A stretch of 64,000 bases of DNA, taken from IMG/VR virus record IMGVR_UViG_3300031992_000075; one strand, 5' to 3'. The translations under genes and the position numbers were made by a program. The notes beneath the pieces are model-generated. The model was not told the origin of the DNA, searched no databases, and worked only from the letters and a program-made list of their open reading frames with translations. The DNA is from an uncultured virus (IMG/VR IMGVR_UViG_3300031992_000075) (taxonomy: Duplodnaviria > Heunggongvirae > Uroviricota > Caudoviricetes). Positions 1 through 24,155 of this stretch are shown piece by piece. Position 1 is the stretch's first letter, and each line of letters starts with the position of its first letter.

Positions 1-1
1 A

Positions 2-130
2 AAAGAGGAAGAAAACGCAAATGAAATCACAACCACTGATGAGGTTGCAACCACCGAACAAGAACAGGTGGAGCAAGAGAACGATAAGAACAATGAAGTT
101 AACGAAACAATAGAAATAGAGGAGGAATAA
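2..130 (+). CDS. 3' end of a gene truncated by the window edge (acidic C-terminus)
   Basis: Open frame KEEENANEIT...IEIEEE* ending TAA at 128-130, 3 nt before the next ATG. Confidence 0.6.
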   Translation, partial: KEEENANEITTTDEVATTEQEQVEQENDKNNEVNETIEIEEE

Positions 131-133
131 AAA

Positions 134-1309
134 ATGAGTAGCGTATCAAACAGATTTTATGTAGAAACCATTGATGATGGCTCTACCCTACACGGACAAC
201 TTCTTTCCACCAAAGCTTTAACACAAGCATGGACTGGTACGGCGGCTGTTCCCGATTGGACGCAAGATTCCAATAGGCCAACCATTTATGTTGACCTGCT
301 AAGTGGTTCAACCAAGGTCACACCAGACACAGGTGGAAAGTGGTATTATAATAATGTCGAAATAGAATGGGCTGATAGTAGCGCAACGGCTGTTTCAACT
401 GATGGCCGATTCCAAAAGGTTGCCAACTACCCGACACAAGCCAACCCGACCGCTGCAATCAAGATTATTACCAACCTTGCATCTGGCACCAATGTTAATA
501 TTGATTCTATCACCTATTCTGGCACTTACACATTGGGTGGTTCGGCTATTGGCTTTAGTGCAACAACGCTTGTCCGTATTACTAGCATTTCATCTGCTGG
601 CATCTTTGGTTTTATTGAATTTGTTGGTAGCAATGTCATTACCGAGGATGGCCAAAAAATAACGATGTATGCTAGGCTTTTCGGTGCTGATGGTGATGAA
701 ATTCCTGCAACGGCAACTGGAAGTCCATTTTCAACAACATGGAAAATGAACAACACAAGCTTGGGGAATGGTGGTGATGTTGTTATTGGTGGCGCAACGT
801 ATCATAATGCCATGCAGGTTGCAGAGGATGCGTCACTTGGAGCATTAAAACAAGTCATTGACAATTCTGTAATAGAATGTGACTTTGCCTACACAACAAG
901 TGTTGATGGAACAAGCACAACATTGACGTACACCACGTTTGAGAACGTTGATGACCAAACGGATTTGGAACAAATGTACATTCAATACAATGGTGGCAAT
1001 GACACGTCTGCGACATTGAAACGTGGTAGTGCTCCTATGACATGGAATATTTGGATGGGTGCGCAGGATGACCCAACGGTTGATACTACTTGGACGCAGT
1101 TCTTTGTTAAGTTGTTAAATGCTGATGGAAACGTTGTTACAGACATAATATCTGGCATTCCACAAGTTATCACAGAACAAGGCGACCCACACCAAGGATG
1201 GAGGCAACTTCCTTGGGATGGTAGCGCGGCACATATTACAGTTACCTATGACATTGTAAATGTTACTTTCAAGAAATATCTCACTGCAATCGTATTGGCT
1301 GAAAAGTAG
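134..1309 (+). CDS. virion/tail structural protein (Ig-like beta-rich)
   Basis: 391 aa, Thr/Gly/Asp-rich, beta-strand pattern, co-oriented with fibre genes. Confidence 0.55.
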   Translation: MSSVSNRFYVETIDDGSTLHGQLLSTKALTQAWTGTAAVPDWTQDSNRPTIYVDLLSGSTKVTPDTGGKWYYNNVEIEWADSSATAVSTDGRFQKVANYPTQANPTAAIKIITNLASGTNVNIDSITYSGTYTLGGSAIGFSATTLVRITSISSAGIFGFIEFVGSNVITEDGQKITMYARLFGADGDEIPATATGSPFSTTWKMNNTSLGNGGDVVIGGATYHNAMQVAEDASLGALKQVIDNSVIECDFAYTTSVDGTSTTLTYTTFENVDDQTDLEQMYIQYNGGNDTSATLKRGSAPMTWNIWMGAQDDPTVDTTWTQFFVKLLNADGNVVTDIISGIPQVITEQGDPHQGWRQLPWDGSAAHITVTYDIVNVTFKKYLTAIVLAEK

Positions 1310-19480: not shown

Positions 19481-20141
19481 TTTCGTTCATTATGTCTTTT
19501 TCTATTGCCACTTGTTGTAGGGCATCTATTTCCTGTTGCATGCGTTCTTCATCTGTTTTCTTTGGGAAAATAACCGTTTCCGAAATTCCCTCAATGTACT
19601 TTTTCATCAGCGTTATCACCTTGTCTACAAATTGCAGGTTTGTGACATCTTCCGTCTTTTCCTCTAGTGTTGCCACCTGCCTTGCTATGTTGTGCAAGTA
19701 TTCCTCGTAGACCATGAATGATGCTACCTCTGTTTCTGCAATTGAATATAGTGGTGAAAAGATATTCATCAGCCACAAGTCAACATACCATGCAAGGTTA
19801 TATTCCAGTTTTTCCTCTTTTGCTTTTAACAATTCAAACAACTTGGAATATGAATACACCGTTTCACCCTTTGCGTCTTTAACCTTGCAATCATTGTTGA
19901 GCGCAATATCAACAAAATGCTCTGCATACATGTAAGGTCTAGATATTCCAGACAGTGTTAGTTTGTCAAACACATGTGAATGCGCGCCAGTCGAAATAAC
20001 GGCATAATCATCGGTAATGGTAATCCGCAGCCCCTTGTCATCAAAATAGATGGACTTGGTGTCTCGTGTCTTTGGAACAAACAGGACAGCGGATTTAATA
20101 CGACGTTCCATTTCACCTTTTGTTTCTTTCTTTTGGTTCAT
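19461..20141 (-). CDS. hypothetical protein
   Basis: ORF, likely start MNQKKE. Confidence 0.75.
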   Translation of the reverse strand: MNQKKETKGEMERRIKSAVLFVPKTRDTKSIYFDDKGLRITITDDYAVISTGAHSHVFDKLTLSGISRPYMYAEHFVDIALNNDCKVKDAKGETVYSYSKLFELLKAKEEKLEYNLAWYVDLWLMNIFSPLYSIAETEVASFMVYEEYLHNIARQVATLEEKTEDVTNLQFVDKVITLMKKYIEGISETVIFPKKTDEERMQQEIDALQQVAIEKDIMNESDGDGK

Positions 20142-20290
20142 ATACTTATGATTATTTTTGTTGTTCGATATGTTTAATTCGTGCCTCGATTTGTTGTACC
20201 ACGTTAGATAGCGATGCCGTGGGGTATTCATTCAGCACATCTTTCAGCACGGCCAGTTGTCCTTTTAGCTTGTGGTATTCGTAATTCATT

Positions 20291-20830
20291 TCAATGTTTT
20301 TTGCTTTCGGAATAAATGTTTAAGAGGCGTAGCTTAATCGTTTCAGCATTTGTAGGTATCTTTCCACGAATAGCATTACGAGAATTATATGCACGCAACC
20401 ATGCCTCGGCCTGCTCTTGATTCGTTATCTCTGGGAATATCCATTCTGGCAATGATTCGTATTCGTTGGTTTCCTCTGTTGTTTCTGTCAGTTCTTTCGC
20501 TTCGTTTGCCAGTATTTCGGCGGCTTTCTTGGATTGCTCATCCAAGTCTGCCTGCTGAATATCCTCGGTGTTCATATAGGCTGGAACAACCAACACTTTT
20601 TCTATTGACACAAAAGGTGACTGGGCGAATGATTTCTTTATCCTTGGCTCTTTATCCTTATCCTTGTCAAAGGTGCAAACGGAATAAGCCAAGCCACCAA
20701 TGGAAAGCTTTACAATAGCAACACCATTCTTAAATGATTCATTTCCATCCCATTCTTTCTTTGGGATAGATGGCAACTGCAAGTAATCGCAGATTTCTTT
20801 TTCAAAAAATATTTTCTCCATATACATCAC
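20291..20830 (-). CDS. hypothetical protein
   Basis: 179 aa; promoter TATCTTTG at 20858-20851 directly upstream. Confidence 0.75.
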   Translation of the reverse strand: MMYMEKIFFEKEICDYLQLPSIPKKEWDGNESFKNGVAIVKLSIGGLAYSVCTFDKDKDKEPRIKKSFAQSPFVSIEKVLVVPAYMNTEDIQQADLDEQSKKAAEILANEAKELTETTEETNEYESLPEWIFPEITNQEQAEAWLRAYNSRNAIRGKIPTNAETIKLRLLNIYSESKKH

Positions 20831-20903
20831 TTGTTTTGATTTTTCAAATGCAAAGATATTAATGATTTTTGAATATGCAAAATATTTTATGTATTTTTAA
20901 ATT

Positions 20904-21137
20904 TTAAATTGTTTCCATCCGTCTTTTTGTTTCCGCAATTACACGTTGTCCTTTTTCAGTTGGATGACCTTTCTTGTCACATTCGACAAATATTTTTAGC
21001 TTATCGTTTATCTTCACCCACCGATAACCGTGCTTTAAAAGTTTCTTTTCTTGCTTCTGCGCTTTTTCCAAGCCCTTACGGTCACTTTCCGTAACCGTAG
21101 GACTTGCACTTTGTGATACCCAGTTCGTTTCGTTCAT
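20904..21137 (-). CDS. hypothetical protein
   Basis: 77-aa ORF, ATGA-coupled. Confidence 0.65.
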   Translation of the reverse strand: MNETNWVSQSASPTVTESDRKGLEKAQKQEKKLLKHGYRWVKINDKLKIFVECDKKGHPTEKGQRVIAETKRRMETI

Positions 21138-22555
21138 AGTTTTGCCATTTCGCGGTTGAACTCGGCACTATCAATCGTGGTCTTGTCACCAATGATAAGT
21201 TGGTGTGCGAAAGGCAACGATTCAATCATTTCGCAAAACGCGCCCCAATCCTCACGAAGAAAATGGTGGCGACGCTGGAAATAGATGGTTTGCAATTGCT
21301 TGTAGTTGGTCGAAATACGCATGAACAACTCAATGCCAAGCGGACAATTGGAAAGCAAACGCATGTAATTGTCGTAGGACTGATGCTCGTTGTATTCGGC
21401 CAAAAGTTTCTTCATTTGTGCCTTGCTTTCGTCCGAAACGTACTCGTTGAAACAAGCATCCATATCCATTTTGGCCAAACGGTGCATCTTACTTGATGAT
21501 GTCACGATGTCGGCAAAGTGATAACGTTGAAATTCGGGCGTAAAGTAGTTCGGGTATTTCATATCGAAAGACACGCGAATACCTGTCAATGCGTTATCGT
21601 GACATTTTACATCGTTGCTATTTCTTGACGCATTAACAAGCCTTACAATACGATTAAAGTCCTTGATTGCCAAACTTAAATCATAATCTGGAATATCAAG
21701 AGTTGTTATCTGTGGCATTTCTATACCATATTCCTCAAACTTATCAATGTTAGGCGAAAATGCTCCAAATAAATCTTTTTCAGCTTTAAGACGTGCTATA
21801 ATTGCATCTTTCTTATCCTTATAATAACCCAAATGTCTTGATACCCCATCAACAACTATGTAAGCCCTCCATGAATTGATGTTTTTTCTAAAACTAACAC
21901 CAACAACATCATTAACCAATGATATTGAACGTTGCTTTCCTCTATTCATTATGTTTTGTGCAAAACTGGATGGTCTAAGGTTCTCTCTTGTGTTGTTTGA
22001 TTTGTCACGGTTTATATGGTCTAACGTATCACAATCAAGTCCAAGGTACTCTTTTAATAAAATGTGAAACAAAACGCCATCAACATTCAAATAGCCTACA
22101 CTTGTGACTTGTAAGTTCTTACCAAACACTAAAGGCAAATCAACTTGGCTTAAAAGTATTGTTCTCGTAATATTTTTTTCACCAGTAATATCAATGCGTA
22201 CATTTTTGTTGTCAATAAGTGTATATACAACATGGTCTTTTATTTCCCCATAACGATATATAGTGTGACAATGCTTACCACAATAATAGTGCATTTTACC
22301 ATCGCTGCATTTTAGACGTTGTACGTGTTCAGAACTGCCACATTTATAGCATGATTGTGGATTGTCTTGACCGCTATTCTTTCCTTGTGGATTGATGTGC
22401 GAAATAAAGTCAGGCAAAAAATCGCCAAAAGATACCCAATACCTCATGTTTTTAACTCTCTCGTCAATTTCATCTTGACTTGTCAACATTGCGTATGACG
22501 AAGCAATTATGCTTTCTGGCAAATCATACACAGAACAATTTGTTATTTCTACCAT
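21134..22555 (-). CDS. divergent ThyX-like protein with in-frame Zn-finger/HNH/AP2 endonuclease insertion
   Basis: Host parts: VYDLPESIIASSYAM (aa 9-23) and HDNALTGIRVSFD..FQRYHF....SSSKMH..TNYKQL.TIY.QRRHH.L.E.W..FC; insert aa ~26-296 has CxxC..C..H, DHINRDKSNN..ENLR and GV......WRAYI.......LG.Y.....A..AR..AE. Confidence 0.7.
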   Translation of the reverse strand: MVEITNCSVYDLPESIIASSYAMLTSQDEIDERVKNMRYWVSFGDFLPDFISHINPQGKNSGQDNPQSCYKCGSSEHVQRLKCSDGKMHYYCGKHCHTIYRYGEIKDHVVYTLIDNKNVRIDITGEKNITRTILLSQVDLPLVFGKNLQVTSVGYLNVDGVLFHILLKEYLGLDCDTLDHINRDKSNNTRENLRPSSFAQNIMNRGKQRSISLVNDVVGVSFRKNINSWRAYIVVDGVSRHLGYYKDKKDAIIARLKAEKDLFGAFSPNIDKFEEYGIEMPQITTLDIPDYDLSLAIKDFNRIVRLVNASRNSNDVKCHDNALTGIRVSFDMKYPNYFTPEFQRYHFADIVTSSSKMHRLAKMDMDACFNEYVSDESKAQMKKLLAEYNEHQSYDNYMRLLSNCPLGIELFMRISTNYKQLQTIYFQRRHHFLREDWGAFCEMIESLPFAHQLIIGDKTTIDSAEFNREMAKL

Positions 22556-22686
22556 TGTATTTCCGAAATTTAATGAGCCGAAAGATTAAAAGTGGGCAGG
22601 GCTTTCGGCATACCTTTTCAAACGAGGGTACTAAGTTCGTTCTATCCCACTTTGCAAAGGTACAAAATTATTTTCTTTTTTGCAAA
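22556..22686 (-). promoter_or_regulatory. promoter plus pseudoknot-like 5' leader
   Basis: TACCTTTG at 22662-22655; stem 22589-22596/22646-22653; 8-bp complement 22577-22584/22602-22609. Confidence 0.6.
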
Positions 22687-22743
22687 TATTTACCAATTTT
22701 TATTTGTTTGTTATTTTACCGTTTGATAATGTTACCATAGTTT

Positions 22744-23214
22744 TTATTTGCTAAAACGTTTACTGATATTTTCGTTCACAGCCTCCTTAATCTTGTCATC
22801 GAGGCGGTCGGTCATTTCCTCAATCTTGGCGATATAGTTCTGATAGGCTCGTTCAAGTTTCGTCTGATAGGCTGCTTTTACCTTCTCCTTGACTTCCTGA
22901 ACGCTGCGGTCTATTTCGTCCGCCCATGCCTTTCTCACGGCAGCTTCGACGCATTGGCGATATTTCTCTTTCAACTTGTAGTAGGATGACCATCCTTGTC
23001 GTGTCTCATCCATGTACTTCTTGTGGAGTTCCATCTGAGCTGTCTCGATAGCCGCTTTGACGGATGCGTCCATGTTCGTTACTACGTTCTTGGTGATTCT
23101 CTTTGAAACACCATCAATAATAGCATTGTGGATTTTGGCTCTTACCTCGTCCGACGAATTGATGATTTCTTCAATCAATTCTTTGTTTTGTAAAGAAATT
23201 GTAACTCTGTCCAT
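22744..23214 (-). CDS. helical/coiled-coil hypothetical protein
   Basis: 156-aa ORF. Confidence 0.75.
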   Translation of the reverse strand: MDRVTISLQNKELIEEIINSSDEVRAKIHNAIIDGVSKRITKNVVTNMDASVKAAIETAQMELHKKYMDETRQGWSSYYKLKEKYRQCVEAAVRKAWADEIDRSVQEVKEKVKAAYQTKLERAYQNYIAKIEEMTDRLDDKIKEAVNENISKRFSK

Positions 23215-23226
23215 AATGTTTTGAAT

Positions 23227-23973
23227 TTATTGTGTTATTTTACCTACCGTTTCATTGGCCTTAAAAGCCTTGAACGGCATTACCTCTGTTCTTTTTTCCA
23301 CCAAGTCACGGATGATAGACGCGGAATAGATGTTGTCTGGGTTTTCGTCGCTAAGACGTTTCGCAACCATCAATGCCGATGCCTTATCCATATCGGTGTT
23401 TACGCTTGTCTGTTTGCCCGTTTTAGGGTCATAGCAAAAGACACCCCAAGTTTCCTTTGGTTCGCCTACAAGTTCGTGATTTAGTTCCGCTTTATAGAAA
23501 GTGAAAACCTTGTCATCGGGTAGGTCGATTCTTATGCAACCCTCGCGTAATGACTTTGTTCTTTGTTCCTCGCCTAATTGCCAAGTTTCGGGCATTTGCA
23601 TCCATTCCATGATATGATGATAAAGGTTTTCGGTTTCAAAGCTAACCTCCTTCCCTGTTTTTCCGTTTGAATAGTAATCAGTCCAGAATTTCATAAACTT
23701 GTCAAATGCCCTTTCAAAGTTGTTCATTTCATGCGCTATGTCGTTTTTTCTTGCGTTTATTTCACTTACAAGATAATCAACACCACCATAGACACGATAA
23801 GCTGATGCAATTGTTGCATGTGACACGCACAATAAGTTTGCGATTCTTTGAAATAGTCCAAGTTCCCTTGCTTTTTCAATGTCAAGTCCGCGAACACCCG
23901 TTGTCTTGATTCTTTTTTGCACATCATCGGCAACGTTAACACTACCGACGATTTCTACGTTTTCACCTATCAT
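23227..23973 (-). CDS. hypothetical protein
   Basis: 248-aa ORF. Confidence 0.8.
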   Translation of the reverse strand: MIGENVEIVGSVNVADDVQKRIKTTGVRGLDIEKARELGLFQRIANLLCVSHATIASAYRVYGGVDYLVSEINARKNDIAHEMNNFERAFDKFMKFWTDYYSNGKTGKEVSFETENLYHHIMEWMQMPETWQLGEEQRTKSLREGCIRIDLPDDKVFTFYKAELNHELVGEPKETWGVFCYDPKTGKQTSVNTDMDKASALMVAKRLSDENPDNIYSASIIRDLVEKRTEVMPFKAFKANETVGKITQ

Positions 23974-24155
23974 TTTTTTGTATTATTATGTTTTGGTTTC
24001 CGATACTTTTGGTTGATTGTTGCAACCCATTTTTTGTACTTCTTTTTTTGTTCCTGCCTTATTCTGTAGTCAACGATGACCGTTTCCACATGGGCAAGGT
24101 CAGTGACCCACCTGCTATATGCAATATTCAGCATAGCTATTTGTTTTGTTTTTGT

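Follow-up and report, generated by a model that had tools for sequence, protein, structure and literature searches.

Can a homing endonuclease reside inside a coding gene from which nothing splices it out? In textbook accounts, homing endonuclease genes reside in introns or inteins or stand between genes, the reason being that a coding gene should not survive an insertion that stays unspliced. The question is raised by a single open reading frame (ORF), P0001, in a stretch of 64,000 nucleotides from an uncultured virus of the Caudoviricetes (IMG/VR record IMGVR_UViG_3300031992_000075); we refer to this whole stretch as the window. A prediction made before any database search (the original prediction) had read P0001 as a ThyX-like gene split by an HNH-AP2 homing endonuclease with no visible intein or intron, and had proposed that the product could home into insert-free alleles. 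Following up that proposal, we consider it likely that P0001 carries a splicing-free, in-frame homing endonuclease that is tolerated in a surface loop of its host protein and that spreads by gene conversion, with the flanks of the insertion co-converted.

The ORF runs from 21134 to 22555 on the minus strand as one uninterrupted frame of 473 codons and a stop, just as it had been described, and it is 100% identical in L012, the window's own contig. PHROGs divide the product cleanly: HNH endonuclease families match aa 177-270, and phrog_6721, of unknown function, matches aa 311-455 through positions 55-216 of its 218-position profile. Pfam applied to P0001 alone returned weak matches to HNH_3 (aa 179-200) and AP2 (aa 217-241) and otherwise nothing notable, and an NCBIfam search gave nothing meaningful. 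The GC content is 0.31-0.36 across the insert in the middle of the gene, compared with 0.43-0.465 in the 3' host part, which bears out the AT-rich character claimed for the insert. Other ORFs of the window match sliding clamp, RecT-like, RecE-like, primase/helicase and tape-measure proteins and mark the DNA as that of a phage, and the sequencing runs that contain the stretch are mostly labelled as ruminant gut metagenomes. A megablast search of window positions 20000-24000 against 50,697 phage records gave no match, and no place in the same records covered at least 80% of P0001 by tblastn; that collection therefore contains no fused form.

The two ends of P0001 are recognizable from proteins that lack the insert. 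Insert-free homologues of 186-223 aa are known from phages of Clostridium and Fusobacterium and from uncultured phages. Those of ~190-215 aa align to aa 1-27 together with aa 290-473, and the insert-free protein P0048 is 93% identical to the C-terminal part. Metagenomes supplied 2068 such proteins of 30-259 aa at E <= 1e-3. Hidden Markov models (HMMs) built from insert-free homologues placed their first 27 residues (the N-segment) on aa 1-25 of P0001, and aa 323-456 were matched by their core; by this placement, N-segment and core are 295 residues apart in P0001 as opposed to 32 in the insert-free proteins. AlphaFold2 (AF2) models are available for comparison of the two forms, with a mean predicted local distance difference test score (pLDDT) of 96 for P0048 and of 88.3 for fused P0001, the latter with a predicted template modelling score (pTM) of 0.82. 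A strand at residues 3-10 and a helix at 12-18 are identical in both models; the second helix falls at residues 32-51 in P0048 and at 293-312 in P0001. The insert thus lies between helix 12-18 and helix 293-312, at a place that is a loop in the insert-free model.

For both models, the top Foldseek matches were exclusively ThyX structures (3ah5, 3n3y, 1o26 and others, probability 1.0), with TM-scores of 0.55-0.66 for the insert-free model at 13-17% identity. VIA-align superimposed ThyX on the model at Z 12-12.8 over 172-182 residues, beginning at residue 1-2. Because these ThyX alignments span the model range 1..458, the N-segment (aa 1-27; 22475-22555, minus strand), defined by its strand and helix through the HMM, the AF2 models and the ThyX alignments, and the C-terminal part (aa 290-473; 21134-21688, minus strand), defined by phrog_6721 and the Foldseek and VIA matches, are as modelled one ThyX-like domain. 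The proposal that the flanks are two halves of a single fold is accordingly upheld.

The term "ThyX-like" requires a qualification, in that it is right for the fold and falls short at the level of sequence. Pfam Thy1 (PF02511) gave no match at E <= 1 in P0001, in 40 insert-free members or in 30 fused or remnant members; a Fusobacterium phage homologue (FNU3) reached 12.2 bits against a gathering cut-off of 24.8, and in the nearest Atlas cluster 18% of the proteins carry Thy1. A profile search of the PDB with the 40 insert-free members produced no ThyX match, its sole row being a chance hit to LptG at E 1.1. The residues that define the host family are H57, G63, R82, Y83, S91, S93, M95, H96, R166 and H169 in P0048 numbering, and the fused forms retain them as H319, G325, R344, Y345, S353, S355, M357, H358, R428 and H431, among others. 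The host domain has its fold in common with ThyX/Thy1 (3ah5, 1o26, 5chp) and with the UMP/dUMP methylase PolB (4p5a), but its motifs, R-Y-H ... S-x-S-x-M-H ... Q-R-x-x-H, differ from the ThyX signature RHR...S...R. We therefore describe the host, from its modelled fold, as a ThyX-fold phage protein, membership of the ThyX enzyme family not being supported by sequence. With 1395 representatives of 50% clusters at E <= 1e-3, the analysis also flags a large phage family that has a ThyX fold and no known activity.

Two further kinds of length variation were seen in the host domain. A second variable site lies at P0001 aa ~381-392 (window ~21380-21415), after the conserved "...EYN" helix, where P0013, P0014, P0076, P0097, P0188 and P0189 have from ~10 to >40 extra residues with no recognizable nuclease. 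P0174 (456 aa) was at one point entertained as a protein with a 244-aa insertion, a reading that we dropped; inspected by eye, it consists of two ThyX-like domains in tandem, the result of a duplication, with altered signature residues in the first copy and no nuclease.

Compared with its insert-free homologues, P0001 contains an in-frame insert of ~262 aa (aa ~28-289; 21689-22474, minus strand). This assignment draws on the HMM gap, on alignments A2 and A6 (the latter comprising 30 fused or remnant proteins) and on GC content, with the borders set by HMM and by eye; the original prediction had put them at ~22480-21670. An alignment of four sequences made with MAFFT (A1) instead placed the insert-free N-termini at the end of the insert, pairing "EYGIE" with "VYGLE". 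We rejected that placement because the motif is the C-terminus of free-standing HNH-AP2 proteins and because the HMM and structural evidence point to aa 1-27. A larger alignment of 112 sequences (A4) made the same error with the N-termini, and we left it out of the folding. We also considered and dropped an internal start for the C-terminal part, Met280 being a methionine in only 2 of 25 HNH-bearing proteins.

Those 25 proteins, which share the architecture of P0001 at identities down to ~33%, were found among 312 proteins ranked by similarity to P0001 or P0048, and their number means that the fusion is not a product of chance. Matches of 260-828 aa number 44, of which 20 cover at least 88% of P0001 at identities from 99% down to 35%, and five further fused forms (P0206, P0209, P0257, P0260 and P0301) belong to other subfamilies. 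The insertion occupies one loop position across subfamilies that share only ~40-50% identity in the core. For classification we retained 282 usable rows, having dropped those with no N-segment hit or without a near-full single core hit, as well as P0174, P0002 and P0003; 24 carry HNH, 36 carry an insertion of at least 18 aa without a full HNH, and 222 are empty.

Within the insert, all of whose parts lie on the minus strand, a helical leader is followed by a zinc-finger-like module, a strand-rich region with the HNH motif, an AP2 domain and a short linker. The leader (aa 28-66; 22358-22474) has helices at 27-41 and 46-54 and a conserved N-L-x-Y-W-L ... F-L-P motif. The zinc-finger-like module (aa 67-105; 22241-22357) is delimited by residue conservation, C69 and C72 being present in 22/25 HNH-bearers, C92 in 23/25 and H95 in 22/25; VIA matched it to GATA-type and other zinc fingers at a weak Z of ~4. 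The HNH catalytic motif (D179-H180 ... N192 ... N201, N204; 21944-22021) is identified by Pfam HNH_3 and by invariant residues, and I-HmuI (1u3e) aligns to aa 137-204 at Z 4.2, again weakly. The AP2 DNA-binding domain (aa 214-275; 21731-21916), part of which is the Pfam match, aligns to the AP2/GCC-box domain 2gcc at Z 7.3, with 58 residues superimposed at a root-mean-square deviation of 2.0. Across alignment A6, HNH_3 was found in 25 of the 30 proteins (best E 5e-8) and AP2 in 22, and twelve residues are invariant in all 25 HNH-bearers: D139, H180, N192, R194, N201, N204, G219, A251, R255, L256, E259 and P268. The HNH and AP2 domains of the original prediction, weakly matched by Pfam in P0001 alone, are therefore clear family-wide.

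The closest counterparts of the insert stand on their own. The best BFVD matches to the whole P0001 model are free-standing HNH endonucleases of phages and giant viruses, ~150-310 aa in length, at E values down to 8e-13. Proteins of Enterocloster phages share 38-40% identity with the nuclease core (aa 136-279), and the one from PMBT24 is annotated as "HNH homing endonuclease". Free-standing P0045 and P0046 end in a ...F-x-E-Y-G-I-like motif that resembles the last conserved motif of the insert. The insert has the nuclease core and AP2 domain in common with such proteins (PMBT24, P0045-P0047, I-HmuI), but they are encoded between genes or within introns and have start and stop codons of their own, whereas the insert has neither codon and sits inside a fold. 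On motifs, domains and the pattern of presence and absence among alleles, we predict that the insert is an HNH homing endonuclease with an AP2 domain.

We looked for splicing at the level of RNA and of protein. Rfam 15, searched at E <= 10 over window 20800-22900, returned no intron family and four chance-level snoRNA/sRNA rows. No Hint or intein family of Pfam was matched at E <= 1 by the 30 fused or remnant members, among the best 25 of 27 families, and no Hint or intein fold appeared among the best 50 rows of VIA, an absence that does not exclude the fold. Across the 25 HNH-bearers, the columns at the junctions (P0001 24-47 and 266-299) show no conserved Cys/Ser/Thr and no His-Asn, in line with the claim that intein-type end residues are lacking. 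The reading frame is open in 25/25 HNH-bearers and in the 36 rows with shorter insertions at the same loop, some of which are only tens of residues long and therefore too short to hold a splicing domain. In RNA libraries (metatranscriptomes), contigs are unbroken over the 5' junction in X15, X16 and X17 and over the 3' junction in X17, and no joints skipping the insert were present in the contigs of these three libraries, which may derive from DNA and drop rare forms. From these results, and from the position of the insertion in a loop of the AF2 model, we infer that the insert is not removed as RNA or as protein and that one 473-aa fusion protein is made; the splicing-free insertion in a tolerant loop that was originally proposed is thus sustained.

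Evidence that the insert moves comes from DNA mosaics. Three insert-free relatives, L004, L005 and L017, are ~94% identical (by eye) to the window gene from nt ~976 to the stop, and blastn aligned them to the window at 82-88% over 645 nt extending beyond the gene. The gene upstream of the ThyX-like gene is likewise 96% (L004 and L017) or 97% (L005) identical to that of the window. Between that gene and nt ~976, the three relatives cannot be aligned to the window except for the first 20 nt of the ORF. The reverse pattern is seen in L013 and L014 (contigs of 5.7 and 10.5 kb that carry identical genes), which are 98-100% identical to the window (~98.5%) from position -151 to gene nt ~965; beyond nt ~965 identity drops to ~75% or less, and the upstream gene is 72% identical. 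The breakpoints of the insert-free relatives and of L013/L014 coincide at the codons L-T-G-I-R-V-S-F-D (21580-21607, minus strand), which are conserved as DNA across alleles. The material common to the window and L013/L014 is therefore a cassette at 21590-22706 (minus strand) that comprises a 151-nt 5' leader, the N-segment, the insert and ~33 downstream codons. Taken together, the two sets of comparisons place one 1.1-kb cassette on at least two backbones, with the window backbone existing in an empty form as well, and by these alignments the insert appears to be mobile between related phages.

Next to the cassette, the slot that separates the ThyX-like gene from the conserved upstream gene (window 23227-23973) varies in gene content from relative to relative and constitutes a second exchange hot spot. 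In the window it contains a 156-aa ORF (22744-23214, minus strand) with a weak match to phrog_3806; L004 has none; L019 and L018 have ORFs of 70 aa (L019:2582-2794) and 79 aa (L018:2678-2917); and L016 has a 380-aa ORF (L016:1737-2879) that, from a motif seen by eye, resembles RtcB RNA ligase. Because this slot varies for unrelated reasons, the 5' border of the cassette alone is no sign of homing. We also observed that 79 nt of the 5' leader of the fused gene (22589-22667) are 80% identical to L004:2039-2116 and L005:2205-2282, which are intergenic and lie ~1.2 kb downstream of the insert-free gene; judging by this recurrence, the stretch may be a repeated promoter or regulatory element.

The distribution of the insert over the phylogeny of its host domain points in the same direction as the mosaics. 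On a FastTree phylogeny of the 282 rows, built from that part of the host core which lies downstream of the breakpoint, at least 17 changes of HNH state are required, compared with a mean of 23.2 and a minimum of 21 when states are shuffled. Of the 24 HNH-bearers, 16 have an insert-free protein as their nearest relative in the core among the compared rows: P0001 is 98% identical in the core to P0048, and P0014 is 95% identical to P0128 and 74% identical to the nearest HNH-bearer. A smaller set of 58 rows, composed of 22 HNH-bearers (the near-duplicates P0004 and P0032 having been dropped) and the two nearest empty alleles of each, was analyzed with IQ-TREE. The approximately unbiased (AU) test rejected a single HNH clade (difference in log-likelihood 652, p = 2e-26), and well-supported branches force at least 8 changes of HNH state. 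Nuclease and core also disagree in their relationships, as in P0013 and P0014, whose nucleases share 87% identity but whose cores share 66%.

A number of alleles appear to record the loss of the nuclease. Among the 36 shorter in-frame insertions, several are recognizable decayed remnants that keep the leader or the N-terminal strands, and an HMM of the leader matches P0023-26, P0028, P0205, P0212 and P0309. P0023-P0026 and P0212 have lost HNH and AP2 but retain the leader and, from the nuclease, its strand-rich N-terminal part; P0205 and P0225 retain fragments of the HNH region; and P0027-P0030, P0098, P0130 and P0309 have only a short loop extension left. All are in frame, as would be expected for an insert that is never spliced out of a protein that the phage requires. 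The frame is interrupted in one fused homologue: L020:959-2324, 94% identical in DNA to L009, has a run of A8 where L009 has A7 inside AP2, and the extra A ends the frame at aa 242, although the remainder of the gene can still be read without interruption in the +1 frame. Either the extra base is an artefact of sequencing or assembly, or the frameshift is recent and would inactivate the nuclease along with the host protein.

We infer the nuclease activity, the homing and the function of the host protein, and we propose that they would be connected as follows. An HNH-AP2 endonuclease with a zinc finger and a helical leader would have been inserted between the first strand-helix unit and the second helix, with the ThyX-like domain folding around the insertion and the nuclease module projecting outward. 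The nuclease would rely on the promoter and start codon of the host gene. In a mixed infection it would nick or cut insert-free alleles near codons 26-30, and recombinational repair would copy the insert together with its flanks, which extend ~100 nt downstream and ~230 nt upstream, the latter taking in the 5' leader and the start codon. A RecT-like annealing protein and a RecE-like exonuclease are encoded side by side in the phage (28024-29848, minus strand) and give it a recombination system of its own, which would serve repair-mediated homing. Later, the nuclease would decay by in-frame deletions into loop remnants, decay being restricted to such deletions because a frame-breaking change would also destroy the host protein.

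Several points weigh against this account and should be set beside the evidence above. Cleavage, target site and homing are deduced rather than observed; of the claim that the insert homes into insert-free alleles, what the data provide is the mosaic DNA with sharp breakpoints and the patchy distribution on the host tree, both of them indirect. The 3' breakpoint falls on highly conserved DNA, where any recombination would resolve, and the 5' border of the cassette falls in a slot that is variable in L016, L018, L019 and the window, such that ordinary mosaicism could explain part of the pattern. A donor-type flank motif (an aromatic residue at N-segment position 21) is also present in 72 of the 222 insert-free rows, and flank type is therefore no clean marker. 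The protein sample is biased, consisting of hits ranked by similarity to P0001 or P0048; the insert-free rows of the AU test were picked as nearest neighbours; and the 18-aa threshold for a remnant may take in natural variation in loop length. The RNA evidence consists of assembled contigs, with the inclusion of DNA and the loss of rare forms that this allows, and the two contigs of X15 end at 21614 and 21680, leaving 21615-21679, at the 3' junction and breakpoint, uncovered. X17 and the DNA run X3 bridge this interval, and an assembly break at a polymorphic breakpoint is the likeliest cause of the X15 gap, which is no proof either way.

The rival that best survives these points is that the cassette moves only by ordinary homologous recombination, with HNH-AP2 as a passive or inactive passenger or as a nuclease that acts elsewhere, for instance on the DNA of competing phages. 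The variable upstream slot, the conserved stretch at the 3' breakpoint and the RecT-like and RecE-like proteins of the window phage all suit such an explanation. Against it stand the invariance of catalytic and DNA-binding residues in 25/25 diverged copies and the recurrence of the insert at the same loop across subfamilies with ~40-50% core identity. Of the 321 codons of the cassette, the window and L013 differ at 8 synonymously and at 6 non-synonymously, for a ratio of non-synonymous to synonymous change (pN/pS) of 0.19 that also argues against a passenger, though the estimate rests on just these 14 codons. Finally, the distribution of the insert on the host tree is near random, as is usual for site-specific homing elements. 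We regard movement by recombination alone as unlikely.

Less probable still is that HNH-AP2 is not selfish and has been domesticated as a functional domain; its role might be, for instance, to hold on DNA a ThyX-fold enzyme that modifies nucleotides or DNA. ThyX-fold enzymes do act on nucleotides, the fusion has been kept down to ~33% identity with both parts constrained, and the pTM of 0.82 suggests a defined arrangement of domains. Yet the module is missing from 222 of the 282 usable rows, host cores that are nearly identical occur with it and without it, 36 rows have shorter in-frame insertions that include several decayed remnants, and the same cassette is found on two backbones. We think domestication improbable.

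Removal of the insert after all, by an atypical intein or cleavage or by an unusual intron that happens to stay in frame, would suit its intein-like niche (in frame, in a conserved enzyme, with a homing endonuclease), the listing of two mycobacteriophage ThyX-like proteins as intein hosts in the accessible part of PMC5050341, and the RNA-library contigs of X15 that stop near the 3' junction, but it is very improbable given the Hint, intein and intron searches reported above, the junction columns without a conserved nucleophile or His-Asn, the frame kept in 25 HNH-bearers and in remnants of tens of residues, and the RNA-library contigs that cross the 5' junction in three libraries and the 3' junction in X17 with no joints.

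Taking P0001 to be a splicing-free homing insertion, we compared it with known systems. The nearest is ShiLan, a homing insertion with a hidden HNH in the DNA methylase gene of a mycobacteriophage (Arsenault, Gosselin & Gogarten 2025, PMC11855218). As far as the available part of that report goes, in both cases a phage coding gene is interrupted, the host frame remains open, intein and intron features go undetected, the disjoint distribution points to homing, the nuclease concerned is of HNH type and a predicted structure has the insert looping out from the host fold (PMC11855218). The HNH of ShiLan, by the same portion of the report, lies in a different frame from its host gene, its translation being an open problem, whereas here HNH-AP2 is in the host frame; the present case further differs in having a ThyX fold in place of a methylase, a nuclease with AP2 and a ruminant gut metagenome habitat (PMC11855218). 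Being in the host frame, unlike that of ShiLan, the nuclease would be made as part of the host protein, and its translation presents no puzzle. We had considered a ShiLan-like hidden ORF here as well and set it aside, the other frames of the insert holding only ORFs of <=63 aa. Splicing-free insertion of a homing endonuclease into a phage gene is thus a recently recognized kind of event, of which the host-frame HNH-AP2 is a variant.

In-frame arrangements have a precedent in organelles, where fusions of LAGLIDADG endonucleases to rps3 reportedly occupy a terminal position and involve duplication of the displaced host sequence. Such rps3-LAGLIDADG fusions were described in mitochondria of the Ophiostomatales (Gibb & Hausner 2005, cited in PMC7902536). 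In what could be consulted of the citing paper, they resemble P0001 in having a homing endonuclease in frame with a host coding sequence and no intron or intein of its own, and differ in being organellar and of LAGLIDADG type, the present case being an internal insertion in the middle of a fold, in phages (PMC7902536). Inteins, too, are in-frame mobile insertions in conserved enzymes that are driven by an endonuclease and that pass through invasion, decay and remnants. They excise themselves by means of a Hint domain and conserved junction residues, neither of which was found in this insert, and their decay leaves mini-inteins, whereas the remnants seen here are loop extensions. A literature search judged from abstracts found no HNH-AP2 insertion in a ThyX-fold protein, and the sole link between ThyX and a mobile insertion that it found was the paper that, in its accessible part, lists mycobacteriophage ThyX-like proteins as ordinary intein hosts (PMC5050341), an example of how such an insertion is usually accommodated in a related host gene.

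We lean, though only slightly, towards regarding these alleles as evidence of a distinct splicing-free route by which homing endonucleases enter coding genes, namely in-frame insertion into a loop and translation as a domain of the host enzyme. By a similarly narrow preference, we would include in that route the maintenance of the frame by selection on the host protein, the substitution of fold tolerance for excision, and a cycle of invasion, co-conversion and in-frame decay. The natural series of 25 intact HNH-bearers, 36 shorter insertions, hundreds of empty alleles and a near-identical cassette on two backbones, an unusually rich record of natural variants, indicates that splicing is dispensable for insertion into a coding gene. 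It also offers a tractable system in which to study how a fold tolerates 262 additional residues, how a nuclease tethered to an enzyme might home, and how selfish insertions might seed domains. If our account is true, in-frame decay leaves behind new loop or domain material, and phage enzymes would thereby have a natural means of accreting domains.

The expression signals of the fused gene may bear on the identity of the bacterial host. Bacteroidota promoters have the consensus -33 TTTG / -7 TAnnTTTG, and a candidate promoter of the fused gene that fits it lies inside the shared cassette at window ~22655-22686 (minus strand), where TTTG is followed after ~20 nt by TACCTTTG, overlapping TAATTTTG. 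The ATG of the fused gene is not preceded by a Shine-Dalgarno sequence, and the insert-free homologue P0166 is labelled Muribaculaceae. Together, the promoter fit, the missing Shine-Dalgarno sequence and the label of P0166 are a hint that the phage infects a member of the Bacteroidota.

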